64,000 bases of DNA from an uncultured Actinomycetota bacterium (lineage in GTDB: Bacteria > Actinomycetota > Actinomycetes > Actinomycetales > CAWJMD01): NCBI GenBank assembly GCA_963835085.1, contig CAWIED010000001.1, positions 78,270 to 142,269 of the forward strand, given 5' to 3'. Below the pieces are notes generated by a model. The model was not told the DNA's origin. It saw nothing but the letters and a program-made list of their open reading frames with translations, and made no database searches. Position numbers and translations under genes: made by a program. Below, piece by piece: positions 14,260-63,681 of the stretch. How positions within the stretch are numbered: position 1 is the stretch's first letter; each line of letters begins with the position of its first letter.

Positions 14260-15544
14260 GTGGCGCGACGATCTTTGGGGCGGCAGTTCGGATGGCTGTG
14301 GACGGCTTACGCGGTCAGCGCCTACGGCTCCGGGCTGGGGTTCGGGGCTTTCCCCCTGATTGCCGTGCTGGTGTTGCATGCCGGCGCCGCGCAGGTGTCC
14401 GCGCTGTCGGCGATAGGTCCGGCAGTGGGTGCGTTGATGGCGATGCCACTCGGTCCATGGGTGGAGTTTCAGCGCAAGCGACCAGTCATGATCGCGATGG
14501 ACATGGCCCGTTTCGTGGTCATGATGAGCGTGCCTGTGGCCTATGCCTTCGGTCGACTGAGTTTCGTCCAGCTACTTCTCGTGTCGGCTTCGGTCGCTGC
14601 GGCCAAGATCGCGTTCAATGCCGCCAGCGGCGCTTATCTCAAGACTCTCGTCCGGCCGGAGGACCTGCTCGTGGCCAACGCGCGGTTCGAGTCCACGACC
14701 TGGGGCTCCATCGCTATCGGACCTCCGCTGGGCGGCGCGGCGATCGGGCTGTTCGGGCCGGTGACGACCGTGGTGGCCGACGCGCTCAGCTATCTGTTCT
14801 CCGCGCTGGGGATCAGCCGCCATTCGTGGCCGAGAAGACCCACCGCAGCGAACCGGCCCGGGGCGGGCCTGGTTCGGCGAGTCGCTCGATGGCTGGCGGC
14901 ACATCCTGACCCATCCGGGCCTGCGAGCGCTCTACCTCAACAACCTGCTCGTCTCCGGACTGATCATGGCTACCGAGCCGCTGTTGGCCGTGCTCCTGCT
15001 TCGCCAGCTCGGGTTCCCGCCGTGGCAGTACGGCCTCGCCTTCGCGGTGCCCTGCATCGGCGGATTGGTCGGCTCACGCGTGGCCCGCCGCGTCGTCGCG
15101 CGACACGGTCAACACAAGGTCTTCCGCACGGTCGGCACGCTGCGTGCTGTCTGGCTGATCGGCCTGGCCTTCGTCCGCCCCGGCCTGGTCGGCCTGGCGA
15201 CCGTGATGGCTGTGGAACTCGCGATCATCGTCTGCATGAGTCTGTACAGCCCGGTGCTGGCCACCTACCGACTTGACCACACTCCGAAAGACCGCATGGC
15301 TCGGACGCTTTCGGCCTGGTCCATCGGGCAGCAAGTCTCCATCGCGATCTTCACCGTCCTTGGCGGGCTGCTCGCCGGCCTCACCAGCCCACGCACGGCC
15401 ATCGCGGCGGCGGGCCTGCTCATCCTCGCCAGTCCACTGTTGCTACCTCGCCGCCAGGGCCCGGCGCCCGTGGGTGATCGTGAACTTGCTGGTGCGGCTC
15501 ACGAGTCGCTCCGACACGAGACGCCGCCAGGGTCTGACCGCTGA
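14260..15544 (+). pseudogene. MFS transporter (EntS/enterobactin-exporter-like) interrupted by a +1 frameshift
   Basis: The N-terminal six-helix half is in the frame of 14260 and the C-terminal half (DGWRHILTHPGLRALYLNN... onward) in the frame of 14966. The junction is at about 14813-14821, where atcagcCgccattcg has one nucleotide too many. Confidence 0.8.
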
Positions 15545-17204: not shown

Positions 17205-18257
17205 TCACCGACCGTTCTTGAGGTGCTTGCACATGGATTCGATGGCGTCGAGATAGGACGTGGCCGTGCCGTAGCCGCCGATGTTATAGGCGTTGAACAC
17301 GAACACATTGCCGGCTTTGACGGCCGGCAGGGCTTTCCAGCCCGGCTGGTCCATCAGTTGTTGTCCGCCGGGGCTGACCAGGCTGCCTTTCTCCGCGCCG
17401 TAGCCGTTGTCGTCGAACACGATCACCTGCGCGTCTGACAGGTCGGACAGCCGTTCCATCGAGACGGTCTCCAACCCACCGGTAGCCGCATTGGCGGCCT
17501 TCTGGGCGGACCCGAAGCTGGCGCCCAGGGCTTGGAGTGCCGCCGGACCAGGACGCTGGGTGCCCTCCAGGGTGAAGTCGGAGGCGCTGTCGGGCCACAC
17601 CACGTACCACTTGGCGGTGCTCAACTGGGCGCTGTAGGCAGACTTGAGCGCGGCGATGCGTTGCGCATACGCGTTAGCCAGCGAGTTGAACGCATCGATC
17701 CGGTTGACCGCGTAAGCGGTCTGCTGCGTGCTCGTCTGCCAGGTCACAATGCTGGAGGTGCTGTCGTAGGGAAACACCGATGCGATCTTGGACAGTTGCG
17801 GCAGGGTGGGGTCGCTGCTCCAAGCGAAGACCAGGTCGGGCTTGAGCTTGGCCACCACCTCCAGATCTATCTCCCCGGAGGAGTTGGACACCTTCGGCAG
17901 CTTGGTCACTTGAGCCTTGTACTTGCTCGGGACAGCATTCTCGGCATTGGTCCAGGTGCCGACCACCGGAACGCCCAGTTCGAGGCAAGGCTCCAAAGCG
18001 TTGGCCAAGGCGATCACTCGCCTGGGCCGGGAAGGCGCCGTGATCGTCGTACCGATAGGCGTTTCGACTGTGCGCGTACTCGCTGCAGAAGACGTGTCAT
18101 CCGGGCCCGATCCGCAGCCAGATAGCCCGACCAGTGCCGCCCCCAGGCCGCCCGTGAGGAGACCGCGCCGGGTCAGCTCGTCGACGATGCGAGCGAACTC
18201 TGCGTCGATCTCCCCCGGCGTCGTGACGCGAGGCTCGGTGGGGGCGGTAAGCGCCAT
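17205..18257 (-). CDS. Iron-siderophore ABC transporter substrate-binding lipoprotein
   Basis: Tat-like signal plus lipobox (RRGLLTGGLGAALVGLSGCGSG). Periplasmic-binding-protein type 2 layout. An IdeR-like box lies 34 nt upstream. Confidence 0.85.
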   Translation of the reverse strand: MALTAPTEPRVTTPGEIDAEFARIVDELTRRGLLTGGLGAALVGLSGCGSGPDDTSSAASTRTVETPIGTTITAPSRPRRVIALANALEPCLELGVPVVGTWTNAENAVPSKYKAQVTKLPKVSNSSGEIDLEVVAKLKPDLVFAWSSDPTLPQLSKIASVFPYDSTSSIVTWQTSTQQTAYAVNRIDAFNSLANAYAQRIAALKSAYSAQLSTAKWYVVWPDSASDFTLEGTQRPGPAALQALGASFGSAQKAANAATGGLETVSMERLSDLSDAQVIVFDDNGYGAEKGSLVSPGGQQLMDQPGWKALPAVKAGNVFVFNAYNIGGYGTATSYLDAIESMCKHLKNGR

Positions 18258-18290: not shown

Positions 18291-18309
18291 ATAGGTTAGG
18301 CAACCCTAA
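18291..18309. promoter_or_regulatory. IdeR/DtxR-type iron box upstream of the siderophore-binding protein gene
   Basis: ATAGGTTAGGCAACCCTAA against the consensus TTAGGTTAGGCTAACCTAA gives 15 of 18 half-site positions. It is 34 nt upstream of the start at 18257. Confidence 0.65.
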
Positions 18310-18382
18310 CATTCGGGGCTGTTGATCCTGAAGCGGTTCGAGCCTGGACGACAACCCGGAGTCAGACCGGGGGGGCAGGCCC

Positions 18383-18500
18383 GGTCAGACACGGCCGATG
18401 TCCGGAATCCGGCGCCAGTGCCGGCCGGTGAGCCTCGGCTGAGCACAAACCCGTGGCTGCTGCACTGAAGCGAGCCGGATTCCGGACATCCAAATACTGA
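18383..18500 (+). repeat. Long-stem repeat element, GGCTGAGCAC-core family, copy A
   Basis: Perfect arms ATGTCCGGAATCCGGC (18399-18413) and GCCGGATTCCGGACAT (18474-18489) enclose 60 nt containing CGGCTGAGCACAAA. It aligns along its whole length, including flanks, with copy B at 56155-56279. Confidence 0.75.
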
Positions 18501-18519
18501 GAGCAGCGAGCGCTGGCCC

Positions 18520-19832
<1,313 letters not shown>

Positions 19833-20046: not shown

Positions 20047-21693
20047 ATGGCGAAGGCGGGTGCTCGCACGTCGGAGTCGGACCGGCTCGCGCCCTACCGG
20101 GCGAAACGTGACTTCGCCAAGACCCAAGAGCCCGCTGGCGGCGCCCAGAGGATCCGCAGCGCGGCCGAGGCGGAACAAGGCGCCGAGGCGCCGTCGGCGC
20201 GATTCGTGGTCCAGCGGCACCGGGCCCGGCGGCTGCACTACGACTTCCGCCTCGAAATGGGCGGCGTCCTGGTGAGCTGGGCCGTCCCCAAGGGTCCGAC
20301 CCTGGACCCGAAGGTGCGGCGCGCTGCGTTCCGAGTCGAGGACCACCCGCTGGACTACTTCGACTTCGAGGGCGTGATCCCGGCCGGCCAGTACGGCGGT
20401 GGGGACGTGATCGTCTGGGACGCCGGCACCTGGCACCTCCACCCGTCGACCGACCCGGCCGCTGCGCTCGCGGCCGGCGAGCTGCACCTGGACCTGTTCG
20501 GCGAGAAGCTGCGCGGGCGGTTCATCCTGGTGCGGACCAGGACCGACTCCTCCGGGAAGGAGGAGTGGCTGATCCTGCACAAGCACGACGAGTACGCAGT
20601 CGATGGCTGGAGCCCCGAGGACCATCCGCGCTCCGTGCTCTCCGGACGCACGAACGACGAGGTGAAGGCCGACCCGGAGCGGATGTGGCGCTCGGACCTG
20701 CCCGCGTCGCTGGCGTCCGTACTGCTCAAACCGGTCCGCCCCAAGGCACTCGGCAATGACGAACTCGCCGCGCTCGACGCGTTGGGCTCTGCCGGGACAT
20801 GGTCGGTGTTCGGTCGCGAGCTGCGCATCACCAACCTGGACAAGGAACTGTTCCCGGCGCGGCGTGGGGAGCAGCCGGCGACCAAGCGCGACCTGCTGCG
20901 TTACACCGCCCAGCTCGCTCCCACCGTGCTGCCCTATCTGCAGCGGCGGGCGTTGAACATGCACCGCTTCCCCGGTGGCGCCGGCACCAAAGGCTTCTGG
21001 CACAAAGAGCTGCCCGATCACGCGCCGGACTGGGTGCCACGCTGGGACAACCCGGACGCCGACCCTGGCGAGACCCGCACCTATCTCGTCGTCGACGAAC
21101 CCGCGGCCCTGGTGTGGGCCGCGAACTTCGGCGCATTGGAATGGCACGCCTGGACCTCACCGGTCAGCCATCCCGACCAGCCGAGCTATGCCCTAGTCGA
21201 TCTCGACCCCGGTAAGCACACCAGCTGGGACGACCTGCTCGTCCTAGCCAGGCTGCATCGCACCGCCCTGGAACACGTCGGCGTTCACGGCCGCCCCAAA
21301 GTCACCGGCCAGCGCGGCATTCAGATCTGGATTCCCATCGCACCCGGGCCGTCATTCGACGACACCCGGGCCTGGGTCGAGCAACTGTCCAAGACGGTCG
21401 GAGCTGTCGTGCCTGACCTGGTCAGCTGGAAATGGCAAGTCCGCGACCGTGCGGGCCTCGCCCGGCTCGACTACACGCAGAACGCCATCAACAAGACCCT
21501 CATCGCCCCCTACAGCCCCCGCGCCGCCCCCGGAGCACCGGTATCGACGCCGATCGACTGGGACGAACTTGACGATCCGGGGCTGCGGCCCGACGGCTAC
21601 ACCATGCGCACCATCGTTCCGCGGCTGGCTGAGCGGGGCGACCTGTTCGCCGACGTCCTGCGGCACGACCAGTCCCTGCCACCGTTGCACTAG
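20047..21693 (+). CDS. ligD: NHEJ protein LigD, phosphoesterase plus polymerase/primase domains only (no ligase domain)
   Basis: PE domain: YRAKRDFAKTQEP, FVVQRHRARRLHYDFRLE, VSWAVPKGPTLDP, EDHPLDYFDFEG. Pol domain: ITNLDKELFP, KRDLLRYT, LNMHRFPGG, GIQIWIPI, DYTQNA. The ORF ends without an adenylation domain. Confidence 0.85.
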   Translation: MAKAGARTSESDRLAPYRAKRDFAKTQEPAGGAQRIRSAAEAEQGAEAPSARFVVQRHRARRLHYDFRLEMGGVLVSWAVPKGPTLDPKVRRAAFRVEDHPLDYFDFEGVIPAGQYGGGDVIVWDAGTWHLHPSTDPAAALAAGELHLDLFGEKLRGRFILVRTRTDSSGKEEWLILHKHDEYAVDGWSPEDHPRSVLSGRTNDEVKADPERMWRSDLPASLASVLLKPVRPKALGNDELAALDALGSAGTWSVFGRELRITNLDKELFPARRGEQPATKRDLLRYTAQLAPTVLPYLQRRALNMHRFPGGAGTKGFWHKELPDHAPDWVPRWDNPDADPGETRTYLVVDEPAALVWAANFGALEWHAWTSPVSHPDQPSYALVDLDPGKHTSWDDLLVLARLHRTALEHVGVHGRPKVTGQRGIQIWIPIAPGPSFDDTRAWVEQLSKTVGAVVPDLVSWKWQVRDRAGLARLDYTQNAINKTLIAPYSPRAAPGAPVSTPIDWDELDDPGLRPDGYTMRTIVPRLAERGDLFADVLRHDQSLPPLH

Positions 21694-30044: not shown

Positions 30045-30660
30045 GGATACGCCGGGGACGGCATCACCGGATGATCTCGATCTCGGCTCCGGCGCTGAAC
30101 CTGGTGCCAAGTGCGGTAACTTCACCGCGGACGGCACCACCGAATGTCCTCGACCTCGGTTCCGCCGCTGAACCTGGTGCCAAGCGCGGCGAATACACCG
30201 CGGACGGCATCACCGGATGATCTCGATCTCGGTTCCGGCGCTGAACCTGGTGCCAAGTGCGGTAACTTCACCGCGGACGGCACCACCGAATGTCCTCGAT
30301 CTCGGTTCCGGCGCTGAACCTGGTGCCAAGTGCGGTAACTTCACCGCGGACGGCACCACCGAATGTCCTCGATCTCGGTTCCGGCGCTGAACCTGGTGCC
30401 AAGCGCGGTAACTTCACCGCGGACGGCACCACCCAACGACCTCAATCCCGGTTCCGGCGCTCAACCGGGTGCCAACCGGGGCGAATACACCGCGGACGGC
30501 ACCACCGAATGTCCCCGACCCCGGTTCTGGCGCTCAACCGGGTGCCAAGCGCGGTAACTTCACCGCGGACGGCACCACTCAACGACCTCAACCCCGGTTC
30601 CGGCACTCAACCGGGTGCCAACCGGGGCGAATACACCGCGGACGGCACCACCCAACGACT
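30045..30660. repeat. Tandem array, 73-bp unit, about 8.4 copies
   Basis: Period of 73 nt (for example identical ORF starts at 30290 and 30363). The unit is approximately CACCGCGGACGGCACCACCGAATGTCCTCGATCTCGGTTCCGGCGCTGAACCTGGTGCCAAGYGCGGTAACTT. Distal units diverge (CAACGACCTCAA..., ...AACCGGGGCGAATA). Confidence 0.9.
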
Positions 30661-30725
30661 CTGGACCGTGCCGGGTCGAGTCCGGCTTCTGCAGGGCTGT
30701 GACGGGGTCGGTTTTCTGACGCCGT

Positions 30726-30754
30726 GGCGATGCCCCACCGGACGGGGCATCGCC
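30726..30754. other. Perfect 11-bp stem hairpin abutting the IS21-derivative insertion point
   Basis: GGCGATGCCCC (30726-30736), loop ACCGGAC, GGGGCATCGCC (30744-30754). Confidence 0.7.
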
Positions 30755-30761
30755 GTAGTAG

Positions 30762-31361
30762 TGTCAAGGGCCAGTGAGAACTGCCCAGTGGCGGACATGA
30801 AACCTGCCCGCTGACGGTCACGAGATCTGCCCGGTGGTGGCCATGGGATCTGCCCAGGGGGGCTGCGGCCACCACCGACCAGGTGCGCTCCGAACCCTTG
30901 TAGCCCATCGCGACGAGCTTCTCGTGGGCCTTGTCGGCGCGGACCTTGCCCTTGGACCGCTCGACCCACTCCTCGACCTTGGGCAGGTACTCATCGATCA
31001 ACTGCGGCCGCGCGGCCACCTGGTCGAGCTCCCAGCCAGCGGCGCGGCGGTCCACGTAGTGCTTCACCGTGTGGTGAGAGCAGCCGGCCAGCTCCCCGGC
31101 ATCACGCAACGACCCGGTCAGGTCGTAGGCATCCAGAATTTTCATGATCTCCTCGGCAGACTTCAACTCATCCCTTCCTCGGGAGCGGTAGCGACTTCAA
31201 GCACCGCTCATCGCACCCGAGGAAGGGGCCTCAACCGCGGACCGCGGCAAGGCAGACGACGTCGTGTCGGGCAGATCCCATGGCCGTCAGTGGGCAGTTC
31301 TCATGTCCGCCAGCGGGCAGTTTCGTGGCCGTCTCCGGGCAGTTTCTCGTGGCCGCCGACA
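30762..31361 (-). mobile_element. Internally deleted IS21-family element (about 600 bp) with both multi-repeat terminal inverted repeats intact
   Basis: Left end TGTCAAGGGCCAGTGAGAACTGCCC...GGCCATGGGATCTGCCC (30762-30855). The right end is the inverted counterpart (31269-31361, ending ...CCGACA). Each end carries four copies of an approximately 22-bp (A/T)CTGCCC-containing subrepeat, as in IS21-type ends. Only a 5' istA fragment lies inside. Confidence 0.7.
30882..31166 (-). pseudogene. istA: IS21-family transposase IstA, N-terminal HTH fragment only (about 95 codons)
   Basis: KSAEEIMKILDAYDLTGSLRDAGELAGCSHHTVKHYVDRRAAG...KVRADKAHEKLVAMGYKGSERT, then similarity stops. TTG start preceded by GGAAGGGA. 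The DDE domain and istB are absent. Confidence 0.7.
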
Positions 31362-31697
31362 CCGTAGCGCAGGAAAAGCCCCGGCCTGTGACTGTCGAAA
31401 CCGCCCTTTGCGGAAGACCCGGGCAAACTGTGGCTTACCGTCGCCCGGCGCTGTCCGCCGTCGCTCAGCTACATCCACCTATCGCCCGGCTCTGCTCCGC
31501 CCTTGGGCTACGCATCGCTGAACTGGCCCAGCTGTTGCCGGCCTGCCAGGCGCCGCCAGCGGGCTACCAGTCTGTCGCTGGGCCATCTGGGTAACGGGGC
31601 GCCTTAACCCAGCCCTACCCCCACCGAACCTGGCTCGCGACACTCCGCCCACAGGGCTTGACACCCACATCTGACGACCAACCGAACGGCATTGGCT

Positions 31698-38549: not shown

Positions 38550-38621
38550 TGCCCCCGAGAGGATTCGAACCTCCGACACACGGTTTAGGAAACCGTTGCT
38601 CTTCCCCTGAGCTACGAGGGC
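38550..38621 (-). tRNA. tRNA-Arg (anticodon CCT)
   Basis: Hand-folded cloverleaf: GCCCTCG TA GCTC AGGGGAA GAGC A ACGGT TTCCTAA ACCGT GTGTC GGAGG TTCGAAT CCTCT CGGGGGC A. U33 and A37 are present. CCA is not encoded. Confidence 0.85.
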
Positions 38622-38736
38622 GGGCGCCCCTCAGGCGTCCGGCAGACATTGTGGCGCACCCGGGCGTCCTAGACCGCATCGGGGCCACAACCGCTTGGCA
38701 CTAGGGCGCCGAGCGGCCCTCATGGCACCTGCCTAG

Positions 38737-39695
38737 GGCCTGTCCTGTAAGTGGTTTTCGGCGTGGTCGCTTTCACCCCTGGTCGGGTTGTGTTAATCCG
38801 GTCGGGTGGCTGGTGTGGGTCGTGGTGAGCTGACGGACAAGGCGTGGGCGGTGATCGAGCCGTTGCTGCCCGCAAACGGTGGGGGCCGGCGGTGGCGGGA
38901 GCACCGGCAGGTGATCAACGGCATCTTGTGGAAGCTGCGCACCGGCGCCCCGTGGCGGGACCTGCCGGAGCGGTACGGGCCGTGGAAGACCGCGCACGAG
39001 CGACTGCGGAAGTGGACGATCGACGGGACCTGGGACAAGATCCTGCAGGCTGCGATCGTCAAAGACGACGCCGTCGGGGACGTGGAGTGGATCATCTCGA
39101 TCGACTCGAGCGTCGTCCGGGCCCACCAGCACGCTGCCGGGGCCCGGAAAAAGGGGGATCCTCACGAGGTGAGATCGAGGCCCTCCAGGTGGACGGAGAG
39201 TGCATCGGCAGATCCCGAGGAGGACTGAGCACCAAGCTGCATCTCGCCGTCGACGGGCGCGGCCTGCCGGTCAGCATGATCCTCACCCCGGGCCAGGACG
39301 GTGACAATCCGCAACTGCTGCCCCTGCTCGACCAGATCCGCGTCCCGAGGGTTGGCCCCGGCAGGCCCCGGTCGAAGCCGGAGGCAGTGCTGGCCGACAA
39401 GGCCTATTCCCACCCCTCGACAAGAGCCGCGTTGCGACAGCGGCGCATCCGATTCACCAGCCCCGAGCGGACCGACCAGATCTACCGGCGGAAAGCCAAG
39501 GGCGCACACGGCGGCAGGCCTCCCATGGTGGACCTGACCGGGTACAAGAGACGCAACGTCGTGGAGAGGTGCTTCAACAAGCTCAAACAGTTCCGCGACT
39601 TCGCCACCCGCTACGCCAAACGCGCCGCCTACTTCAAAGCTGAGATCACCCTCGCCGCCACCATCCTCTGGCTCCGATAACTTACAGGACAGGCC
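38737..39695 (+). mobile_element. IS5-family (IS427-group) insertion sequence, apparently complete
   Basis: 16-bp perfect terminal inverted repeats GGCCTGTCCTGTAAGT (38737-38752) / ACTTACAGGACAGGCC (39680-39695). CTAG lies on both flanks (38733-38736, 39696-39699). It contains a two-frame transposase. Confidence 0.85.
38806..39680 (+). CDS. IS5/IS427-group transposase, orfA-orfB joined by a programmed -1 frameshift
   Basis: orfA is (V)GRGELTDKAWAVIEPLLP...NGILWKLRTGAPWRDLPERYGPW. The orfB DDE part is LSTKLHLAVDGRGLP...VLADKAYSH...NVVERCFNKLKQFRDFATRY in the -1 frame. The slippery A5G run at 39148-39153 lies in the overlap. The start may be the GTG at 38815. Confidence 0.85.
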
Positions 39696-39763
39696 CTAGA
39701 AGCGACACCAGAAGGCCGGCCCCAGCCGAGCAAATACCTCGGCTGGGGCCGGCCAGTCAGCAG

Positions 39764-41498: not shown

Positions 41499-42227
41499 CT
41501 ACTGTTTCGTGGTTGTTAAGTCCAGACCAGTCAGGAATGCGTCCCATACAGCCTTGCCCGGCGCGCGGTGCGCCTCGTCGGAGAGCGAGCGCGCCACAGC
41601 TCCTGGGCCGGCCAGTTCGAACACCGGCTGGACAGCCGCGGGCGGGGTGCCGGGCCGCCATCCCAGGGCACTCACCGTGTCGAGCACCCGAGAAGCGCCG
41701 AGGACGCCGGGCGTCACGATGTCGAGATCGAGATCCTCAGCCAGCAGGTCGACACCGTCGAGGCGCACCCGGGTGCGGCAGAACAACGAACCGGAACGCT
41801 CCCCGTGGCGCCCCAGCACCAACACATCGCGCAGCAGGGCGCGGGCCGCGAGGGCCAGGTCGGCGTGCAGGTCGCGCCGGACGATCGCGCCTTCGGCCAC
41901 GACGAAAGGCTCTGCAGGCCAAGTGAGCACGGCACCCTCGTCCAGCTCGACGCGCACCGACCACGCACAGCCGCGACCGCGCCCGTTGTAGGCGACGGTG
42001 CCGGCGACGTCTATCAGGTCGAGGCGGGCGCCCGCACCGACGCGCACCTCCAATCGCACGCTGTCGCCCCCGAGCAGCAGTGCTCCCGTGGCCACGAGGG
42101 CGACCCGCGCCCTGCCCGGCCCCACCGACACCAGTCGCGGGGCGAGTAGCCCCGACGAGAGCCGAACCCGAGCAGGGCCTCCCGGAGCGCCCAGGCTGAT
42201 GTCGACCGAGGCCGGTCGATCAGTCAT
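41499..42227 (-). CDS. ureD: Urease accessory protein UreD
   Basis: Last gene of the ure cluster, with UreD-like length and pattern. Start chosen at ATG 42225-42227, 5 nt after the ureG stop. Upstream in-frame starts exist up to 42275. Confidence 0.8.
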
Positions 42228-42981
42228 GCGGGTGGTGGTGATCCTGCGGGTGCGCGTGGTCATGAGCAGGCCCATGCGGGTCGGCGTGGAAGTGCGGTGC
42301 CATGGGTCCTGGGTCGTGTGGAGTGTGCCGTCCCGACTGGTAGGTCTGCACGAGGTCGAGCACCCAGCCGCAGAGCGCGGCTACCGACTCGGGATCGGTG
42401 CGCGACAGGCCCACCACGGCGCGCTCGCCGCGCGCCTGTCGGCCCTGAAGGGTCATCAGCTCGACGTCGACTCCCACGTAGGGGCCCAGATCGGTCTTGT
42501 TGATCACGAGCAGATCAGCCCGCGCGATGCCCGGCCCGCCTTTGCGGACGACATCGCCGCCGCCGGCCACGTCGAGCACGAACAGCTGGGCATCGACGAG
42601 GGCGGGGGAGAAGGTGGCGGTGAGGTTGTCGCCGCCCGACTCCAGCAGCACGAGGTCGAGCGGGGCGAAGTCTGCCTCGAGGTCTTCGACGGTGAGCAGG
42701 TTGGCGGTGATGTCGTCGCGGATCGCGGTGTGCGGGCAGGCACCGGTCTGCACCGCCCGGATCCGCTGCGGGTCGAGCACCCCCGCCGAGCGCAGCAGCT
42801 GGGCGTCTTCGTCGGTGTAGATGTCGTTGGTCACGACGGCGAGCGACAGCCTGCTGCTCAACTCACGGCAGAGCAACGCGATGATGGACGACTTCCCGGT
42901 TCCGACCGGCCCTGCGACACCCAGTCTGAGCGGTCGGTCGGGTAGGTCGGCGGATGCGGCGGAGGGCGCGACTGAGGTCAC
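42220..42981 (-). CDS. ureG: Urease accessory GTPase UreG with His-rich C-terminal tail
   Basis: P-loop [16 protein letters not shown] and NKTDL motifs. C-terminal tail [24 protein letters not shown]. Confidence 0.9.
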
Positions 42982-43017
42982 AGCCTCACGATAGTGCCGG
43001 GCCAGGCGCGGTCTGCC

Positions 43018-43695
43018 TCAGGCCGTGAACAACCGTCGCGACGAGGTGGCGTGGGCGTGCTGCCACGCCTCCAGGGCAGGGGCCGCGGTGGCCGGCAGGT
43101 CGTCGGGGTCAGTGAGGCCGGCTACGTCGGCTGCCACGAGGGCGATGTCGTCCGCACACCCGAGCGCCCACGACAGCGGCGCCACCGGGTCGAGCGGCAG
43201 CAGCTTGAGCGCTGCGGCACAACAGGTTTGCACGTCGTCATAGCAGGCAAGCCGGGCCAGCCGCTCGCCGTTCAGGCCTAAGGGAAAGGCGAGGGCGGCC
43301 AGCGCCAGCGGCCGGTAGGCCGGCTCCCCGAGCGCCAATACCGCCGTCGCGGCCGGGCTGTCGGGCCAGAGCCTGGTCAGCAGCCGGGTATAACCGCGCC
43401 CCACCAGCGCGGCGGCCGCTCGAACGTGCTGGGACGGTGTCCGCGCCGCCCAGGCCGCCTGCACCGGCGCCAACGACAGCCCGGCCTGCAACGCGTGCGC
43501 GGCGACGACGGCGGTTGCGGCGTCCACCATGGTCTGGGTGCGCAGGCGCGTTCGGAGGAACGCCGGGATCTGCTCGACTGTCAGGCCTGCGGCCAGGGCG
43601 GGCTCGAGCCCCGCCGACTGGGTGTGCCCGCCGCTGGGCAGCCGGGCGTCCGCCAACAGCATGAGTGCGAAGTCGACGGTGGCGGCCGGCGTCAC
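43018..43695 (-). CDS. ureF: Urease accessory protein UreF
   Basis: LLADARLPSGGHTQSAGLE is the N-terminal UreF signature. Position between ureC and ureG. Confidence 0.85.
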   Translation of the reverse strand: MTPAATVDFALMLLADARLPSGGHTQSAGLEPALAAGLTVEQIPAFLRTRLRTQTMVDAATAVVAAHALQAGLSLAPVQAAWAARTPSQHVRAAAALVGRGYTRLLTRLWPDSPAATAVLALGEPAYRPLALAALAFPLGLNGERLARLACYDDVQTCCAAALKLLPLDPVAPLSWALGCADDIALVAADVAGLTDPDDLPATAAPALEAWQHAHATSSRRLFTA

Positions 43696-43704
43696 AGGAC
43701 CGCC

Positions 43705-45417
43705 TCAGAACAGCGAATAGCGTTGTGCCAGAGGTAGTTCAGTGGCGGGTTGAGGCACGATCAGGGTGCCGTCGATGCTGATCGCGAAGGTCTCCGGGTC
43801 GACGACGATCTCGGGGCAGGCGGTGTTGTTGCGCATGGAGGCCTTGGTGACCTCGCGGGTTGGCTCCACCGCCACCAGCTGGCGTCGTAGCCCGAGTCGC
43901 TCGGCAAGCCCGCTGTCGAGGGCCAGGGGCGAGACGAAGCTGATCGACAGGTCGGCCCCGGAGCCTCCGGAGCCCACCAGAGTGGGCCGCATGAGCACCG
44001 GCTGCGGCGTCGGGATCGAGGCGTTCGGGTCGCCGAGGGCGCCATAGACGATCGCCCCCGCCTTGAGCACAACTTCGGGACGTACGCCGAAGAAGCGCGG
44101 GTCCCACAGCGTGAGGTCGGCCAGCTTGCCGGGTTCGACGGAGCCAATGTGCCGGTCGAGGCCGTGCGCGATCGCCGGATTGATCGTGTACTTCGCCACG
44201 TACCGCCGAGCCCGCTCGTTGTCGGCGGGCAGTCCGGCACCGGCGAGTGCCCCGAGCCGATGTTTCATCACATGCGCCACCTGCCACGTGCGAGTGATCA
44301 CCTCGCCGATGCGGCCCATCGCTTGGGCGTCGGAGGAGGTGATCGACAGCGCTCCTAGGTCGTGCAGGATGTCTTCTGCCGCAATGGTTGTCGCGCGGAT
44401 CCGAGACTCGGCGAAGGCCAGGTCCTCCGGTACGGCGGGGTTCAGGTGGTGGCACACCAGGAGCATGTCGAGATGTTCGGCCACTGTGTTGACGGTGTGC
44501 GGCAGGGTCGGGTTGGTCGAGCCCGGCAGCACGTTGGGGTGGGATGCGATCGTGATGATGTCGGGCGCGTGGCCGCCGCCGGCGCCCTCGGTGTGAAAAG
44601 CGTGGATGCTGCGGCCGCCGATGGCCCGCAGGGTCGAATCGACGTAGCCGGCCTCGTTGAGACTGTCGGAATGTAGCGCGACCTGCAGCCCGTATTCGTC
44701 GGCGGCCACCAAGGCGGCATCGATGGCCGCGGGGGTCGCGCCCCAGTCTTCGTGCACCTTGTAGCCGCCAGCTCCGGCAATCGCCTGCTCCCGCAAGCCA
44801 TCTCGGCTGACCGTGTTGCCCTTGCCCATGAGCAGCAGGTTGACGGGAAGGTGGTCGAGACCGCGATGCACGGTCTGCAGGTGCCAGGGACCGGGTGTGA
44901 CAGTGGTGGCCTTCGAACCCTCGGACGGCCCGGTGCCCCCACCGCCAAGCGTAGTGAGCCCGGCGGCCAGCGCCTCATAGATCTGCGAGGTGGACAGGAA
45001 GTGCACGTGCATGTCGACCCCGCCCGCCGTGAGGATCTTGCCCTCACCGGCGATGACGTCTGTGCCGGGCCCGATCTCGAGATCGGGGTGCACGCCGTCT
45101 GCCACATCGGGGTTGCCGGCGCGGCCCAGGGCCACGATGCGCCCGTCGCGGATGCCCACGTCGGCGCGCACGATGCCCCAGTGGTCGAGCACCACCACGT
45201 TGGTGATCACGGTGTCGGGCGCGCCCTGGGCCGAGGTGCGCAGACCCTGCGCCATCGACTCCCGGATCGACTTGCCACCACCGAAGACGGCCTCCTCACC
45301 GCCGACGGTCAGGTCGTTCTCGATCTCGATCCACAGGTCGGTGTCGCCGAGCCGCAACTGATCGCCGGTGGTGGGGCCGTAGAGCGCCGCATAGGCCTCA
45401 CGAGACAGTTCCACCAT
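43705..45417 (-). CDS. ureC: Urease alpha subunit
   Basis: 570 aa. Active-site blocks [13 protein letters not shown]..., [19 protein letters not shown] and CHHL. Confidence 0.95.
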
Positions 45418-45419
45418 GA

Positions 45420-46040
45420 TCAGATCTCCTCGCCGGCAGGGGATTTCAACTGCAGACCGGCCACGTGCCGTCGTCCTTGCAGGGTGACGGCCGCCACCGT
45501 GCGCGAGACCCCGGGCTCAAAGCGGATCGAGGTGCCCGAGGCGATGTCGAGCCGGTAGCCAGCCGCGGCTGCGCGGTCGAACGACAGCGCGGCATTGGAA
45601 TCGGGCAGGTGCAGATGGGAACCGATCTGCACGGGACGGTCACCGGTGTTGACGATGGTCAGCTCGATTCGCTCACCGTCCGGACGCTCGTTGAGGGTGA
45701 TGGTGCCTGGGGCGACCCGCAGGTGCGCGGGCGCGCTGGCCGCGATCGGGTGATGCAGGGTGACCAGCTTGCGTCCGTCCGGAAACGTGGCCTCCACCTG
45801 CACCTCGGTGACGAGTTCGGCCACGCCGTCCATTACGTCGTCGGGGCCGAGCACGTCGCAGCCCTCGACCATCAGGTCGCTGACCAAGGCGCCCTCGCGC
45901 GCCCGCTCGATCACCCAGGTGGACAGCAGGGCGACCGTTTCGGGATGATTGAGCTTGACGCCGCGGCTCAGGCGGTCGCGCGCCACCATGCCGGCCACGG
46001 CCAGCAGCAGCTTCTCCGTATCGGCTCCGGACAGGTGCAT
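45420..46040 (-). CDS. ureAB: Fused urease gamma-beta subunit
   Basis: The N-terminal 100 aa are UreA-like ([34 protein letters not shown]...). The C-terminal about 105 aa are UreB-like ([15 protein letters not shown]...LSFDR...[17 protein letters not shown]). It is a single ORF with no internal stop. Confidence 0.9.
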
Positions 46041-46083: not shown

Positions 46084-46878
46084 TCAGGCGCTGGCGCCGG
46101 CCGCGGACTCCTCAGCCTCCATCTGAGCGTTGAAGTCGCGCTTGCCGGCCTGCCAGAGATCTTCGGTCTGTCCCGTGCGCCAGTACCCGGAGATCGAGAC
46201 GTGCTCACGTGGCACGCTGTTCTCCACGAAGAAGAAGCGGCGCAGGTCTTTGATCATGCCGGCGTTGCCGTGCACGAAGACCCGCAGATCGCCCTCCGGC
46301 ACGCCTGCGGCCCGAACAGCCTCCGTCAGCGCATCGCCATAGCTGGCGTTGGAGTCGTCGCGGTGCACCCAGGTGACGTCGACGTTCTCGCCGCCGGGCA
46401 CGTTCAGGTGGGCGGCGGAGTTGGCCACCTCGACGAACACCTTGGCCTGTGCGCGCTCAGGCAGGACCTCCAGGGCCGCGGCGATCGCGGGGAAGGCGGC
46501 CTCGTCGCCGGCGAGCAGGTGCACGTCGGCTTCCGGATCGGGTGCCCAGGCCCCGCCCGGGCCGAAGAAGCTGATGGTGTCGCCCGGCTTGGCCGCTGCC
46601 GCCCACGGACCGGCCAGGCCGGCGTCGCCATGCACGACGAAATCGATGGCCAGCTCGTTGCTCTCGCGGTCGAAGGAGCGAATTGTGTAGGTGCGCGTGA
46701 CGGGCGGGAAGCTCAGCTTGACGTAGTGATCGGTGAAGGCGAGCTCGGGCAGCGCGCGCAGGTCGTTGCCGGTCAGCACGACCCGCACGAGATCAGGCGA
46801 CAGCCACTCGGTGCGCACTACGACCGCGGTGCGTTGCGTTCGGGGCTTACGGGGTCGGTCGACGACTGGTTCTGACAT
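46084..46878 (-). CDS. Siderophore-interacting protein (SIP, FAD-binding_9 family) / ferric-siderophore reductase
   Basis: RTYTIRSFD FAD-binding motif. GPGG...LLAGDEAAFPAIAA NAD-binding block. C-terminal GYWRTG. Confidence 0.85.
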   Translation of the reverse strand: MSEPVVDRPRKPRTQRTAVVVRTEWLSPDLVRVVLTGNDLRALPELAFTDHYVKLSFPPVTRTYTIRSFDRESNELAIDFVVHGDAGLAGPWAAAAKPGDTISFFGPGGAWAPDPEADVHLLAGDEAAFPAIAAALEVLPERAQAKVFVEVANSAAHLNVPGGENVDVTWVHRDDSNASYGDALTEAVRAAGVPEGDLRVFVHGNAGMIKDLRRFFFVENSVPREHVSISGYWRTGQTEDLWQAGKRDFNAQMEAEESAAGASA

Positions 46879-46883
46879 GCTAG

Positions 46884-46902
46884 TAAGGCTAGCCTAACTG
46901 TG
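46884..46902. promoter_or_regulatory. Weak IdeR/DtxR-like box directly upstream of the SIP gene
   Basis: TAAGGCTAGCCTAACTGTG gives about 12 of 18 half-site matches to TTAGGTTAGGCTAACCTAA. It starts 6 nt upstream of the start codon at 46878. Context is functionally consistent but the match is poor. Confidence 0.35.
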
Positions 46903-46971: not shown

Positions 46972-47760
46972 TCACATGTGCATGCCGCCGTTGACCCCCC
47001 AGACCTGACCTGTGATGTACGAGGAGTCGTCGGAGGCCAGGAACGAGATGACTCGCGAGATCTCTTCGGGCCGGCCGAGCCGGGCCATCGGAATGTTGCC
47101 CTTGATCTTGTCCAGAACCTTCTCCGGCACCGCCTGCACCATCTCGGTGCCGATATAGCCCGGGGTCACCGCGTTGATCGTGATGGAGGCGCCGTCTTCA
47201 GTCATCTTGCCGGCGCGGCTGAGTTGGTAGAGCGCCTCCTTGGCCATCGTCTTGGTAAGGGCGAACAGACCCGACTTGGACGCCGCGTAGTTGGCCTGGC
47301 CGAGGTTGCCCATCTCGCCGATCACCGACGAGACGTTGATAATGCGCCCATTGCCCTGCTCCACCATGTGCGCGAGCGCTGCCTGGGAGAGGAAGAAAGC
47401 GCCGGAGAGGTTCACCGCGATGACCTTGTTCCAGTCGTCGTCGGTCATCTTGGCGACGATGCGGTCGATGGTGATGCCGGCGTTGTTGACGAGGATGTCG
47501 ATGCGGCCGTGCTGCTCGACGACCTCGGCGATCACGCGACGACAGTCTTCGGCCTCGCCGACGTTGCCCCGGTGCAGGGTGACCTGAGCATCGGGGTAGT
47601 TCTTGTCCATCTGGGTTTTGAACTCATCAGCGCGCTGGGAGTTGCCGCCGTAGCCGGCGGCGACGACCGCGCCGGCCTTGGCAAGGTCCTCGCTGATCGC
47701 GGCGCCGATGCCGCGGGTGCCGCCGGTAACGAAAGCAACGCGACCCTTGAGGTCAGACAT
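46972..47760 (-). CDS. SDR-family oxidoreductase (acetoacetyl-CoA / 3-oxoacyl-ACP reductase-like)
   Basis: TGGTRGIG cofactor motif, NNAG, and the catalytic YAASK. Confidence 0.85.
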   Translation of the reverse strand: MSDLKGRVAFVTGGTRGIGAAISEDLAKAGAVVAAGYGGNSQRADEFKTQMDKNYPDAQVTLHRGNVGEAEDCRRVIAEVVEQHGRIDILVNNAGITIDRIVAKMTDDDWNKVIAVNLSGAFFLSQAALAHMVEQGNGRIINVSSVIGEMGNLGQANYAASKSGLFALTKTMAKEALYQLSRAGKMTEDGASITINAVTPGYIGTEMVQAVPEKVLDKIKGNIPMARLGRPEEISRVISFLASDDSSYITGQVWGVNGGMHM

Positions 47761-48164
47761 AAGAGGCTCCTTCGCCCTGTTGGTGTGTGACGCACACCAC
47801 CCTAGCCACCCTGCTTGTGCGTTCGGAGGATCGGACGTTGCTCGCTGGACGGAAAGGACGGCCGCGGTCTCCCTAGCTTCAGGGGCTGTCCGCCTCGGTG
47901 GTGGACGCCATGCCGACAGTGGCAGCCTGACCGGTGGTGAGCCCGGCTATGCCGAGAGCTGCCCCAGTACTCCGAGGGATGCTCCCAAAGTGCGCGCCAC
48001 AGTTGGGGCGGCGGTCGATCGGTGTGGACTCATGAACGAGTACTCCTCTGAGACAAGTGAATTCGACACGATTGAGCTGTCAGGACCCGCGCCCTCTTCC
48101 ACTCTGGGACGACGGCCAGGTGCGACGATCGCCAACGGCCAAGACGCCTATGAACACTGTGACT

Positions 48165-48183
48165 TAGGTTAGCCTAACTTTAC
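48165..48183. promoter_or_regulatory. Strong IdeR/DtxR-type iron box with no adjacent annotated gene
   Basis: TTAGGTTAGCCTAACTTTA gives 16 of 18 half-site positions of TTAGGTTAGGCTAACCTAA. It lies in a 670-bp gene-free interval (47761-48431). Confidence 0.6.
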
Positions 48184-48296
48184 TGATGGAGCCCAGTGGC
48201 GTGAGGGGATGCCCTCCGAGTTGGGATCTCTTGAAAGGACTGGGTGGCTTCGTCGGTGGATGCGCACCTGGTCGCCTCGGCTTCCAGCCATGGTGT

Positions 48297-48383
48297 GTCC
48301 CTTATCCGACACGGTTGCTGTGGCGGACTGGGATCTCGTGCTCAGCCGAGATCGCCGGTCTGCAATCGTGTCGGATAAAGGAC
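48297..48383 (-). repeat. Long-stem repeat element, GGCTGAGCAC-core family, copy C (core on minus strand)
   Basis: Arms GTCCCTTATCCGACACG (48297-48313) / CGTGTCGGATAAAGGAC (48367-48383). The 53-nt interior is the reverse complement of the copy D interior (GTGCTCAGCC at 48339-48348). Confidence 0.75.
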
Positions 48384-48431
48384 AGCGGCCGGGCCTGCCC
48401 CCGGGTAGGGCCAGCCCAGGCCCGGCGCGCC

Positions 48432-50852: not shown

Positions 50853-50856
50853 GGCG

Positions 50857-53800
50857 ATGATCCTAAGGGCGGCTCAAGGCGTTAGCGTTTTGCACGTGCA
50901 ACCTCCAGAGCGCCCCTCGTCCGCCCTGCTCCAACGTGCCATCGCGCGCTGGGAGGTCGAGCTCAGCGACCTGGCGGGCCACGACGATCTGGTGTATCTC
51001 GACCCGTCGTCGGGCCGCCTGCTCGATCTGTCCGTCGCCCACCCGAGCGGTCTGGCGGGGTTTCTCGCCGGCCGGCTCACCCGGCTGTCAGACCTCTTCC
51101 GTGCGCCGGAGTCGCTATACGTCGCCCGCGTTCGTGCCCGGGCGGTCTCGCTCGCGGCAAGCCGGCTCGAAGACACCTACGGTCTGCCCGGTGCGCACCT
51201 CGCGACGGGCACCTTCGACTGGCCAGACGCTCCCGGCGGCCGGCCGGTGCGCGCGCCCATCCTGCTCCGCCCGGTGCGGCTGGTGGCTCGCGGCGCGGGG
51301 GCCGGTGTCGACTACGACCTCGACCCCGCCGACGAGGCGCGGCTCAACCCCGCGCTAGTGGAGCTGCTGAGGGCTGAGGGCATCGTGGTCGACGATCGTC
51401 CTGTCACCGACGCCGACCACGGAGTGGCCGCCCGTAAGGTGCTCGACCGCATCACGAGCGCGGTGGTCGGCCTCGACGTGAAGCTCAACGACCGCATCCT
51501 CGTGGGAGTCTTCGCCGACATCGCCCCCGGCATGCTCACCACCTTGCGTGCGCAGGCGCCCGATCTGGGCGTGCACCGGACGATTCAGGCGGTGCTGCGC
51601 CGTCCGTCCACTGTCGGCCAGTCCTCCGCGCGTCACGCCCCCGCGTCCACGGCTGGCATCGACGCGGCCGTTGTCCCGGAATCGGTTGAGCGTCAATCTG
51701 TTTCGGAGAAATCTGGCCCCGCTCAAGCGGACGGTGACCGGAGTGGTCTGAAATGGCACGTCGCCAACCAGGCTCAGCGTCCGGCGACGCAGGCCCAGCC
51801 GGCGGCATTGGCCGGGCAGCCGACCGGCCCGGCCCGCCGGGGCGCGCGTGCCGCTCTGCTCGACCCGGCCCAGCTGGCCGTGCTCGACGCGGTGGAATCG
51901 GGCCTGGACACCCGGGTGGAGGCAGCCGTCGGCAGTGGCGTCACCGCCACCGCGGCGGCCATCGTCGAGGCTGTTCTGGGCAAGGGGAACCGGCTGCTCG
52001 TGGTGGCGCCCGCCCTCGATGAGCTGGAGGAGCTCGCCGCGCGGCTGAAGGGCGACGTGGGCGAAGCGGCTCGGGGAGCCACCGAGGCTGCCGCCGCGCA
52101 CGCCCGGTTGCACCGGGTGCATCCCACCTGGGGCCTGAGCCGGATGCAGGCGATGGAGCGGCTGGTGAGCCTGGGCGCACCGGCGACGGCCGCACCGGCG
52201 GCCGGGCGGCTGAGCGCGCTGACGCTAGTGAGCCTCAGCCACGACCGCAGCCGGGCGGCCACCTTGTTGGGCCAGGCGTCGAAGGTGGGCGTCTTCACGC
52301 CCGTGGCCGTGAACAGCCCGTGGGCGGGGGCGGCTCTGCCCGATGACGAGGCCACCCGCCGGGCCAGGGCGGTGGTGGAGCAGTTGCTGCACCATGACTT
52401 GCCGACGGCACGCACGATCATGAGCGGCGTCGCTGCCGCGGTGGCTCTGCCAGAGGGTCTCAGCCTTACCGAGTGGACGGCCCAGGTCGAGGTGCTCACC
52501 TCGGTGCGCGGCACCTTGGATCTCATGTTGCCCGAGGTGTATCAGCGGGCGGGGGAGGAGATGGTCAAGGGCACGGCTTCCAGCAACTGGCGGGCCACCA
52601 ACAACGTGACTATGTCGATGCTCGAACGGCGTCGGTGGCGGCGTGAGGCGTCCGCGCTGGTTCGCCCGGGTCTGCAGGCCGCGGATCTGCACGCGACTCT
52701 GCTGCGGGCCCGGCTCGAGAAGGATCTCTGGGCCCGGTTGGGGGGCGCGGGGAAGCCAGGTGTCGCAGCGGATCTCGACGCAGCGACGGCTGCGGTGGCC
52801 AAGGTGCGCGATTGCGTCACCCGGCTCGACCCCGTGCTGGCCGGTTCGGCGGTGGGCGCAGGCCTGGCCGACCTCTCCCTGCAGGAGTTGACCGAGCGGC
52901 TGCAGGCGCTGTCCGCTGCCGGCTCCGATCTGCACGATCTGCCCGCCCGCGCCCGGCTCGCCGAGGAGCTGTCGAACCTGGGTCTGGACCCGTTGGTGGA
53001 ACAGCTGCGGGCTGAGCCGAGCCGTCGTCCGGTGTGGGAGTCATTGGAGATCGCCTGGCTGCGTGGGGTTTTGGCGGAGCTGGAAGCTACGCCCGACCCC
53101 ATCGGCGTGGCCGCTGCCGAGGCGCCGGTCGGGTTCGGGGTCAACCTCGGAGGGCTCACCACGGCCACCAGTCTCGGGCTGGGACGGCTCGACCCCGCGG
53201 CCAGGTTCGATGTCGTGCTGTTGCTTGACGCCAACCGGATCGGACTCGCTGAGGCGGTGCTGGCCATCGCTCGGGGCGACCAGAGTGTGCTGATCGGCGA
53301 TCCGGCAGGTCTGGCGCCCGCCGGGCTCGACCTCGGCGATCAGAGCGAGGTGGGTCCGCGCCGGGTCTCGGTGCTGGCCGCCACCGATCGGCGGCTGGCC
53401 ACCTTCCGTCTCGATCGGGTGCATCGTCAACCGGCCGCGCTCGCGGCCCTGGTGCCGCAGGTGGGTGGCACCTCGAGCGTGGTGCCTGCCTGGTCGGTGG
53501 CCTCGGCGGAGGCCTTCGAACCCGATGCCGAGGCCCTTTCCGCGGTGACCGGAGAGGTGGAGATCAGCCTCGAACACGTGCCAGGCAGCACGGTGCCGCT
53601 CAGTGACAACGAGGCCGACCTGGTGCCCGCGCAGGAGGTGGAGGCCGTCGTGGCCCTCATCGCCGAGCATGCGCGCTCGCGGCCGGGGGAGTCGCTGGCC
53701 GTGCTCACCGTGTCCCGGCCGATGGCCCACGACGTGGCCGATGTGCTGCGCCAGGCCCTGCGTCGATCTCCCGAGCTGGCCGGCTGGCTCACCAGCGGCC

Positions 53801-54405: not shown

Positions 54406-54412
54406 TCGGGGG

Positions 54413-56154: not shown

Positions 56155-56279
56155 GGTCAGACGCGGTCGGTGTCCGGAATCCGGCGCCAGTGCCGGTCGA
56201 CGAACATCGGCTGAGCACAAAACTCCAGGCTTGGTGCACCGCTCGAGCCGGATTCCGGACATCCATGCACTAAGAACAG
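56155..56279 (+). repeat. Long-stem repeat element, GGCTGAGCAC-core family, copy B
   Basis: Arms GTCCGGAATCCGGC (56172-56185) / GCCGGATTCCGGAC (56247-56260). Core CGGCTGAGCACAAAA. The flanks GGTCAGACGCGGTCGG and ATCCATGCACTAAGAACAG are collinear with copy A. Confidence 0.75.
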
Positions 56280-56607
56280 GGATCCGATCACCCAGCGCCT
56301 GTCCTCACCGCCGCCCGGACGCACCGGATGGATGACCTCGTGCACCCACCCATCCCAACGGGCGACCCACGCGTCCATCCGTCACGTTCCTCGCCCACTC
56401 GTCACCAACCTGGTGACATCCCGGCGAACAACGTCACAGCTCAACGACCCACGGCTGCCAGCCCTGACACCCCGGCAATCGGCACGCCACACAACACCGA
56501 CCCCTTGGAACAGATCATCTGGCGCGGCCTTGCCCGGAGTGAGGCGGCTCAGGCCGCCACATCGTGCACAGTCTCAGGTGTCAACACCATTTTATCCAAC
56601 GCCTTAT

Positions 56608-61243: not shown

Positions 61244-61259
61244 GGGGAGCTCGCAGCAG

Positions 61260-63471: not shown

Positions 63472-63562
63472 CCCTGGTCGGACAAATCGGAATCTGCGGA
63501 CGCCTACCGCCAGGTGTGAGCGTCCGCACCCTGCATCAGTACCCGGCAGCCGAGCTTCCTGT

Positions 63563-63649
63563 GTCCCTTATCCGACACGAATTCAAACTGGCGAAGCTGG
63601 CTGAGCACGAAATCCAAGCCCGCCGTCAGAATCGTGTCGGATAAAGGAC
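63563..63649 (+). repeat. Long-stem repeat element, GGCTGAGCAC-core family, copy D
   Basis: Arms GTCCCTTATCCGACACG (63563-63579) / CGTGTCGGATAAAGGAC (63633-63649). Core GGCTGAGCACGAAATCC at 63599-63615. It lies in the convergent gap between the oxidoreductase and the AEC transporter genes. Confidence 0.75.
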
Positions 63650-63681
63650 ATCAGCCGAGCTAGACCCGGGTGGGAGCCGCC

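Follow-up and report, generated by a model that had tools for sequence, protein, structure and literature searches.

Are the four long hairpins scattered through this DNA the copies of a mobile element, an RNA structure maintained by the host, or a site bound by a protein? Small palindromic repeats shape bacterial genomes in a number of ways, by breaking assemblies, marking insertion hot spots, or altering the ends of mRNAs, and they also serve for the typing of strains. Most of the families described come from the Proteobacteria and Firmicutes, and no small palindromic repeat family described from the present actinobacterial lineage was found. What the family would mean also depends on the answer: if it is mobile, a specific partner enzyme would be indicated by the conserved motifs of its foot and tip, while a host RNA element would be a multi-copy regulator. 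The whole stretch of DNA that was analyzed, 64 kb in length, is referred to here as the window.

Copies and Extent of the Repeat

The original prediction of four copies of a hairpin repeat of approximately 90 nt was borne out at every locus (Table 1), although the coordinates given for it were inset by 1 nt at each end in comparison with the full TGTCC...GGACA spans. A covariance model of the four copies, with a structure limited to the 15-bp outer stem, was used to scan the 64-kb window unfiltered. The four copies scored 94.9 to 100.6 bits, whereas the best other match in the 64 kb reached 18.6 bits, which leaves a gap of around 80 bits between the family and the rest of the window.

The arms lead to the same result. 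With an 18- or 19-mer as the query and three mismatches at most, the arm of each subfamily was found only at both arms of its own two copies, that is, four observed matches against the 0.29 and 0.01 expected from shuffling. No single arm was found elsewhere in the 64-kb window, and the arms thus occur only as inverted doublets. The exact 10-mer core, GGCTGAGCAC, occurs once more in the window, at 3610, inside a PTS gene, and this extra occurrence is taken as chance.

Table 1. Positions of the hairpin copies, their parts, and the IdeR/DtxR-type boxes within the window.
Feature	Position	Strand	Remarks
Copy A, hairpin	18399..18488	+	Subfamily 1; 90 nt; perfect outer stem of 17 bp; 94.9 bits
Copy A, core GGCTGAGCAC	18437..18446	+	Invariant
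Copy A, 5' tail "F" GGTCAGACACGGCCGA	18383..18398	+	One-sided; common to B, similar to the tail of D
14-mer GGGGGCAGGCCCGG beside A	18371-18384		Common to A and C
Copy A, right extension TCCAAATACTGAGAGCAGCGA	18489..18509	+	Common to B only
Copy B, full unit	56155..56282	+	Subfamily 1; hairpin 98.9 bits
Copy B, tail	56155-56170
Copy B, hairpin	56171-56261
Copy B, core	56209-56218
Copy B, right extension	56262-56282
Copy C, hairpin	48296..48384	-	Subfamily 2; 89 nt; 100.6 bits
Copy C, core	48338-48347	-
Copy C, tail side ACCCGGGGGCAGGCCCGGCCGC (minus strand)	48385..48406	-	Includes the 14-mer common to A
Copy D, hairpin	63562..63650	-	Subfamily 2; 89 nt; 97.4 bits
Copy D, core	63599-63608	+	Interior and core inverted relative to C
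Copy D, tail side CACCCGGGTCTAGCTCGGCTGA (minus strand)	63651..63672	-	Similar to the tail of A
10-bp direct repeat CAGCCGAGCT flanking D	63547-63556 and 63652-63661	+	Possible target duplication
Strong IdeR/DtxR-type box near A	18291-18309		3 mismatches to the 19-mer TTAGGTTAGGCTAACCTAA; 0 expected by shuffles; upstream of the Peripla_BP_2 gene
Strong IdeR/DtxR-type box near C	48164-48182		2 mismatches to the 19-mer TTAGGTTAGGCTAACCTAA; 0 expected by shuffles; in the extra ~500 nt beside C
Weaker IdeR/DtxR-type box	46879-46902		Directly upstream of the siderophore-interacting-protein gene

Structure of the Unit and Its Two Subfamilies

Each unit is made up of inverted end blocks of 15–18 nt, a spacer of approximately 55 nt, a tip motif of 10–12 nt, (TC)GGCTGAGCAC, and a tail of 16–22 nt, and the copies fall into two subfamilies, A/B and C/D. 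The arm sequences read TGTCCGGAATCCGGC and TGTCCCTTATCCGACACG, and the blocks TGTCC-NNN-ATCCG and CGGAT-NNN-GGACA are invariant in all four copies, as predicted. The interior had been given as 53–60 nt, but the distance from ATCCG to CGGAT is in fact 63–65 nt, and a length of 53–57 nt applies inside the full stems of 17–18 bp. The 10-mer of the core is likewise invariant, on the minus strand in C as the prediction had it, although its proposed continuation, (A/G)A(A/G)A, does not hold in A, where the core is followed by AAAC.

Copies A and B, with an overall identity of approximately 84%, share an identical run of 26 nt that starts at the first T of TGTCC, and can be aligned over approximately 128 nt, which comprise 16 nt on the left (GGTCAGACRCGGYCGR), the hairpin, and some 21 nt on the right, so that the shared units extend beyond the hairpin to 18383-18509 and 56155-56282. 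Copies C and D have identical arms of 18 nt, with a C.A mispair at position 6 in both when the plus strand is read (G.T in the minus strand), while their interiors are approximately 75% identical only after one of them is reverse-complemented. Copy C forms a nearly continuous hairpin of approximately 40 bp, with GCTGAGC at its tip. The single arms can also form small stem-loops of their own, GTGTC-N8-GACAC in C/D and CCGG-AAT-CCGG in A/B.

The one-sided tail lies on the same side as the GGCTGAGCAC reading of the core in copies A, B, and C, whereas the tail-like sequence of D and the GGCTGAGCAC reading of its core are on opposite sides. In the simplest interpretation, the interior appears to have been flipped between the arms in one lineage, and this is drawn mainly from the same-side mispair of the C/D arms and the reverse-complemented interiors. 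The flanks lend statistically weak support to a flip in D, where the 10-bp direct repeat makes both sides tail-like.

Sequence Constraint and Folding

The four copies have diverged unevenly along their length. Between A and B, all 40 positions of the arms and core are identical, against 35 of the 52 positions of the spacer (Fisher p=1.8e-5), and a similar pattern is found between C and D, with 38 of 40 and 32 of 52 identical positions, respectively (Fisher p=1.5e-4), the two differences in the arms and core being a swapped mispair. Between the subfamilies, the identity of the spacer is 40–52%, in comparison with 22 of 30 positions in the arms and 10 of 10 in the core. None of these sequences appears to encode a protein, as had been claimed, given that no ORF is conserved across the four copies and that no frame combines being open in every copy with similarity across the subfamilies.

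In the outer stem, 98.3% of the cells pair, and four pairs have changed on both sides. All four of these changes, within a stem of 15 bp, represent one and the same contrast, that of A/B with C/D, and the covariation is based on four sequences in two pairs, a sample without statistical power. Long DNA palindromes and elements of the REPIN type likewise show compensatory changes (PMC3116915), and, because only a single contrast is available, the changes in the outer stem cannot separate selection on an RNA from a self-correcting DNA palindrome. The original prediction had deduced selection on a fold from this pattern, and the constraint on the arms and core is upheld by the Fisher tests, while selection for an RNA fold is not established by the one contrast. 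The paired change of the arm triplet that it described, from GGA:TCC to CTT:AAA, does separate the subfamilies, but CTT:AAA includes one C.A mispair. The supposed covariation of the next helix (ATTC:GAAT versus TTGC:GCAA) is an indel-laden difference between interiors that are reverse-complementary to one another rather than clean covariation.

All the copies fold as long hairpins, with RNA z-scores of -3.7 to -9.6 (no shuffled sequence folds as well), and also do so as DNA. In the predicted folds, the core of A and B forms the 3' half of an internal stem (GUGCCGGYCGR ... UCGGCUGAGCAC), that of C occupies the apical loop of a near-perfect hairpin of 40 bp, and that of D pairs downstream. The more stable strand is the plus strand in A, B, and C, and the minus strand in D, which fits the orientation of neither the tail nor the core. 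Neither the folding of the interior nor the part that the core plays in it is the same in the two subfamilies, and the best-folding strand is inconsistent. What is constrained is therefore the sequence at the ends and tip, together with pairing overall, rather than one RNA fold.

Genomic Neighborhood and Comparison with Relatives

Gene calls and the Pfam context confirm that all the copies are intergenic and place them in four unrelated gene contexts. Copy A occupies a divergent promoter region. On one side is the gene of a siderophore-type periplasmic binding protein (17205-18257, minus strand), and on the other a broken leuA-like gene, the decay of which had been recognized correctly: this gene is split over at least two frames, 18520-19485 (the HMGL-like part) and 19470-19832 (the LeuA_dimer part). 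A third frame with high GC3 is found in the split gene at 19151-19465. An MFS transporter near A is also apparently frameshifted (14260-15276 and 14966-15544), and LigD is encoded at 20047-21693. The hairpin of copy B starts 305 nt past the ThrE stop codon, and copy C starts 25 nt past that of a GH31 gene, upstream of an SDR gene. Copy D lies between the convergent FAD oxidoreductase and Mem_trans genes, with its tail approximately 10 nt, and its hairpin 31 nt, past the Mem_trans stop.

The window is part of one contig of 3,617,947 bp. The nearest relative is an "Actinomycetales bacterium" MAG, with amino-acid identities of 69% for the GH31 protein and 71% for the oxidoreductase. Among the named protein matches that follow, Micrococcales (Cellulomonas, Georgenia, Beutenbergia) and Jiangellales predominate, which makes the reference to the Micrococcales in the original prediction reasonable. 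This MAG is syntenic over positions 46972-63455 of the window, and the covariance model recovered no copy in the syntenic region, where the sites of B, C, and D are all empty. The element is also absent from three further relatives, at 67–68% identity. The gap between the SDR and GH31 genes is 163 nt in the nearest relative and 671 nt here, with copy C inside the insertion of approximately 500 nt, while the ThrE-UDG gap is 13 nt in the relative and 4.3 kb here, with B near its left edge. Synteny stops directly after D, although the nearest relative continues with syntenic genes past the oxidoreductase. The sites of B, C, and D thus differ from the nearest relative as insertions would, in a comparison with proteins that are only around 70% identical, at which distance ordinary intergenic turnover could also yield empty sites.

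The 4.3-kb segment (55850-60190) contains copy B, a weak cupin-like ORF, a methyltransferase, a GntP permease, and a DUF1877 fragment. At the DNA level, its GntP gene has 88% identity to a gene of a Micropruina MAG (L052), and horizontal acquisition of the segment is likely. The region upstream of the SDR gene contains a motif (GGCTAGGGTGGTGTGCGTCAC, window 47790-47830) that is conserved in the relative of approximately 70% identity (L057, 12490-12515) as GGTTAGGTGGTGTACGTCAC, and that may represent an operator or promoter element.

Search for Known Families and Further Copies

A scan of the whole window with Rfam release 15 recovered only a tRNA at threshold, and scans of A, C, and D by E-value returned only low-scoring models of generic hairpins, at 10–21 bits in comparison with thresholds of 40–90. 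These scans agree with the claim that the element matches no known riboswitch or small RNA family. None of the DnaA box, the SigH/R promoter, parS, or the CRP-type sites fits the element when compared by eye with the consensus.

The searches for further copies covered a number of collections. No match was obtained by blastn of A and D against plasmids, and the pattern of arms plus core was absent from the JGI metagenome contigs and the viral contigs, as were the IUPAC-merged arms without the core from the JGI metagenome contigs. In the genome contigs, the arms-only pattern recovered at least 51 chance palindromes from unrelated phyla, with the core in none of the matches listed. A six-frame pseudo-protein of the four copies found nothing at E<=10 among 5.8 billion proteins, and the covariance model detected no copy either in approximately 100 kb of the relatives' syntenic DNA (L055-L063) or in the Micropruina locus.

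Indirect evidence for more copies comes from the short-read contigs of the same strain in ERR11523670. Contigs of this set stop at window 18428, which is precisely 30 nt inside hairpin A, and at window 56167, precisely 30 nt left of the first subfamily-specific base of B (56197), while one contig crosses D uninterrupted. This collection was built with k=31, with every 31-mer unique by construction (PMC12424806). As A and B share only 26 nt, they cannot cause the breaks themselves, and the contig ends, together with the uniqueness of the 31-mers, imply that at least one further sequence carries the arm of subfamily 1 with different neighbors. Both breaks would be explained by one further copy with the sequence TCGG, the 26-mer, and CCGG, in that order. 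Fold-back artefacts at the hairpin were considered as a cause of the contig ends and rejected, given that the breaks would then be expected at other positions. A match to a known family, or a lack of additional copies together with that of supported covariation, a transcript, and insertion polymorphism, had been named in advance as counting against the element: Rfam provides no such match, and no extra copy turned up in the collections searched, but the contig ends imply that one exists.

Other Repeats in the Window

The window contains other types of repeat. A tandem array of 73-nt units (8.3 copies, 86% matches) spans positions 30052-30659, and two short arrays of a 23-nt unit (TGAGATCTGCCCGGTGGCGGACA), at 30775-30855 and 31268-31355, are inverted relative to each other, approximately 430 nt apart. 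These arrays (30052-31355) sit just past a polysaccharide-synthesis cluster, and the ORFs that overlap them (30290-30814 and 30834-31367) have no Pfam match. An insertion sequence of the IS5 family is present at 38733-39699, with a DDE_Tnp_1 domain in overlapping frames (38806-39228 and 38844-39680) and perfect inverted ends of 20 nt (CTAGGGCCTGTCCTGTAAGT). It lies approximately 110 nt from a tRNA gene (38550-38621, minus strand), and is followed by a perfect 17-bp hairpin at 39714-39754.

A Palindromic Element, Probably of the REPIN/MITE Type

The reading that we favor, with a probability of roughly 55%, is that of a palindromic element of the REPIN/MITE type, restricted to the lineage and non-autonomous, and either mobile or formerly mobile, which would constitute a new family in that class. 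This reading follows from the invariant inverted ends, the drifting spacer that still pairs, the one-sided tail, and the intergenic sites that are empty in the relative, while the identical arms of C and D, with their same-side mispair and reverse-complemented interiors, are as expected for a DNA palindrome. Among the three identities that the original prediction left side by side, the mobile hairpin of the REP/MITE kind fits best, and the small RNA and the protein site fit less well. The copies seen directly are the four within the 64 kb.

We infer, in this case, that mobilization would involve a single-stranded or cruciform intermediate, the element being handled as a DNA hairpin or cruciform, and an enzyme encoded in trans, by a gene outside the window, which would recognize the arms and the apical motif. 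New copies would land in intergenic DNA, mostly just past stop codons, without a regular target duplication, and would then probably be co-transcribed and tolerated, while recombination or template switching between the arms could flip the interior.

No mobilizing gene, such as a Y1/HUH transposase or RAYT, is found among the approximately 70 ORFs of the window that were scanned, in which the only transposase is that of the IS5-family element. The derivation of the family from this insertion sequence was rejected, given that its 20-nt inverted ends are unlike the arms and have only TGTCC in common with them. No target duplication is present at A, B, or C, and the direct repeat at D is located 5 nt (left) and 1 nt (right) from the ends of the hairpin, and does not abut it on the left. 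The G.T wobbles of B, C, and D all fall on the same, tail-side strand, which hints at tolerance at the level of the RNA and is counted against the reading as mobile DNA.

Alternative Explanations

The alternative that survives best, although it is unlikely, is a cis-acting RNA hairpin of the 3' untranslated regions, which would function as a terminator without a U-tract or as a block to exonucleases that stabilizes the mRNA, and would be selected by the host and spread by duplication. Copies B, C, and D do follow stop codons, at the distances given above, with the tail-side strand as the sense strand, but D lies between convergent genes, as B perhaps does too, which makes the orientation uninformative, and A is found in a divergent promoter region rather than 3' of a gene. 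The hairpins are very stable as RNA, with no shuffled sequence as good, and the only non-Watson-Crick pairs of the stems (the closing pair of B and position 6 of C and D) are G.U on the tail-side strand and A.C on the other. Against this, the interior fold is not kept between the subfamilies, and the choice of the more stable strand tracks neither the tail nor the core. An intrinsic terminator consists of a GC-rich hairpin and a U-tract, and the hairpin is present at every copy, while no U-tract or T-run follows it and no copy matches the terminator consensus. A generic hairpin function would also leave the invariant 10-mer unexplained.

A second alternative, and an improbable one, is a site in duplex DNA for a recombinase or an architectural protein, similar to an att or attC site, which would mark the joints of acquired DNA, with the arms and the near-palindromic GCTNAGC center as the bound sequences. 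This possibility draws on the position of B near the left edge of the 4.3-kb insertion with its Micropruina-like GntP gene, of D at the break in synteny, and of C within the insertion of some 500 nt, as well as on the apparent flip of the D interior between identical arms, for which the evidence of the flanks is nevertheless weak. The other end of the 4.3-kb insertion has neither a partner copy nor a single arm, no integrase or recombinase gene is located near any copy, and the R-box motifs of integrons are absent. A and B are also too divergent, at approximately 84% identity, for a fresh attL/attR pair, and, together with the lack of integrase or prophage genes between them, this identity led to the rejection of A and B as the attL and attR of an island of 37.8 kb.

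A trans-acting family of small RNAs, possibly regulated by iron, with the invariant 10-mer as its seed, is more doubtful still. The two strong IdeR/DtxR-type boxes, the only ones in the 64 kb, are found close to copies A and C, at distances of 90 and 113 nt, respectively, and the 10-mer of the core is conserved amid drifting sequence. The box near A, however, is 33 nt upstream of the siderophore-type binding-protein gene, and is explained as its operator, while B and D have no box within six mismatches. No iron gene adjoins the box near C, and the siderophore-interacting-protein gene (46084-46878) has a weaker box of its own. The orientation of the element relative to the box is also opposite in A and C, so that the transcripts would have complementary cores, and no promoter or terminator consensus is found at any of the four copies, nor is there an Rfam match. 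It can be recorded separately that two of the four hairpins (A and C) share an intergenic region with a strong iron box, and that a urease operon (UreD, UreG, UreF, alpha, and a fused gamma-beta; 41499-46040, minus strand) adjoins the siderophore-interacting-protein gene.

Finally, a chance resemblance among the ordinary hairpins of a GC-rich genome, which at 67% G+C is rich in hairpins and commonly yields weak model matches of 8–18 bits, is refuted by the 80-bit gap and the arm matches expected from the shuffles, with the identical 26-mer of A and B as a further point against it, and retains a negligible probability.

Comparison with Known Systems

The REPINs, which are doublets of REP sequences that form hairpins (Bertels & Rainey 2011, PMC3116915), provide the closest parallel for the element as a palindromic unit of the REPIN/MITE type. 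In these, two conserved inverted ends enclose a less conserved spacer that compensates, and the putative intermediate of transposition bears a 5' tail (PMC3116915). The present family shares the hairpin doublet, with conserved inverted ends and a pairing spacer in which the changes are compensatory, and, like the REPINs, its copies are found between genes, with no target duplication and with a 5' tail on one side, while each of its arms can also fold by itself into a small stem-loop. It differs in the absence of a GTAG or CGTC tag at the foot of the hairpin, the criterion applied in PMC3733652, and of a RAYT gene, the cognate Y1 transposase gene that the repeats flank, among the approximately 70 ORFs of the window that were scanned. 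REPs and REPINs reach tens to hundreds of copies per genome, and the 64 kb here contain four, with at least one more implied by the contig ends. The survey of Di Nocera et al. lists several phyla, and never mentions the Actinobacteria (PMC3733652).

The bacterial MITEs and the ERIC-type elements, such as Correia/NEMIS, ERIC, and RUP, have been reviewed elsewhere (PMC3184786, PMC2229807). The units described here resemble them as non-coding sequences of approximately 100 nt, dispersed in intergenic DNA, which have terminal inverted repeats, in this case perfect or near-perfect arms of 15–18 nt, and fold into one long hairpin, the comparison with ERIC being one of architecture. Elements of this type are often co-transcribed and specific to a species. 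The differences from the MITEs are the lack of a regular target-site duplication abutting the ends, and of a parent insertion sequence with matching ends within the window. In addition, the invariant motif at the tip of the hairpin is not a described feature of either the REPINs or the MITEs.

Two other systems are worth comparing. The attC sites of integrons are imperfect palindromes, 57–141 nt long, that follow acquired genes at their 3' ends and act as folded single strands, and their outer blocks are conserved while the center varies. The present family has TGTCC/GGACA ends in place of the RYYYAAC/GTTRRRY boxes, its center is conserved rather than variable, and the window contains no integrase or cassette array. 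The hairpin origins and nick sites of HUH endonucleases, found in rolling-circle plasmids, ssDNA viruses, and the ends of IS91 and Helitron elements, combine an invariant tip motif with a paired stem that varies. The short invariant motif at the tip of the present hairpins, on a stem that varies and yet pairs, is a lead in this direction and nothing more, given that the stem is much longer (approximately 35–40 bp), that the motif is paired in A and B and looped only in C, and that no Rep or relaxase gene is found nearby. It is a long shot, then, that the family might represent a new type of hairpin-mobile DNA of the actinobacteria, distinct from REP/RAYT, IS200/IS605, and the DDE-MITEs, in which an enzyme, of the HUH type or another, would recognize the invariant foot and apical motif, with a flip/flop interior like that of the rolling-hairpin replicons.

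On present evidence, the family is a modest addition to the known class of dispersed palindromic repeats, rather than a new principle, and what sets it apart within this class is its invariant tip motif and the possible flip of its interior.
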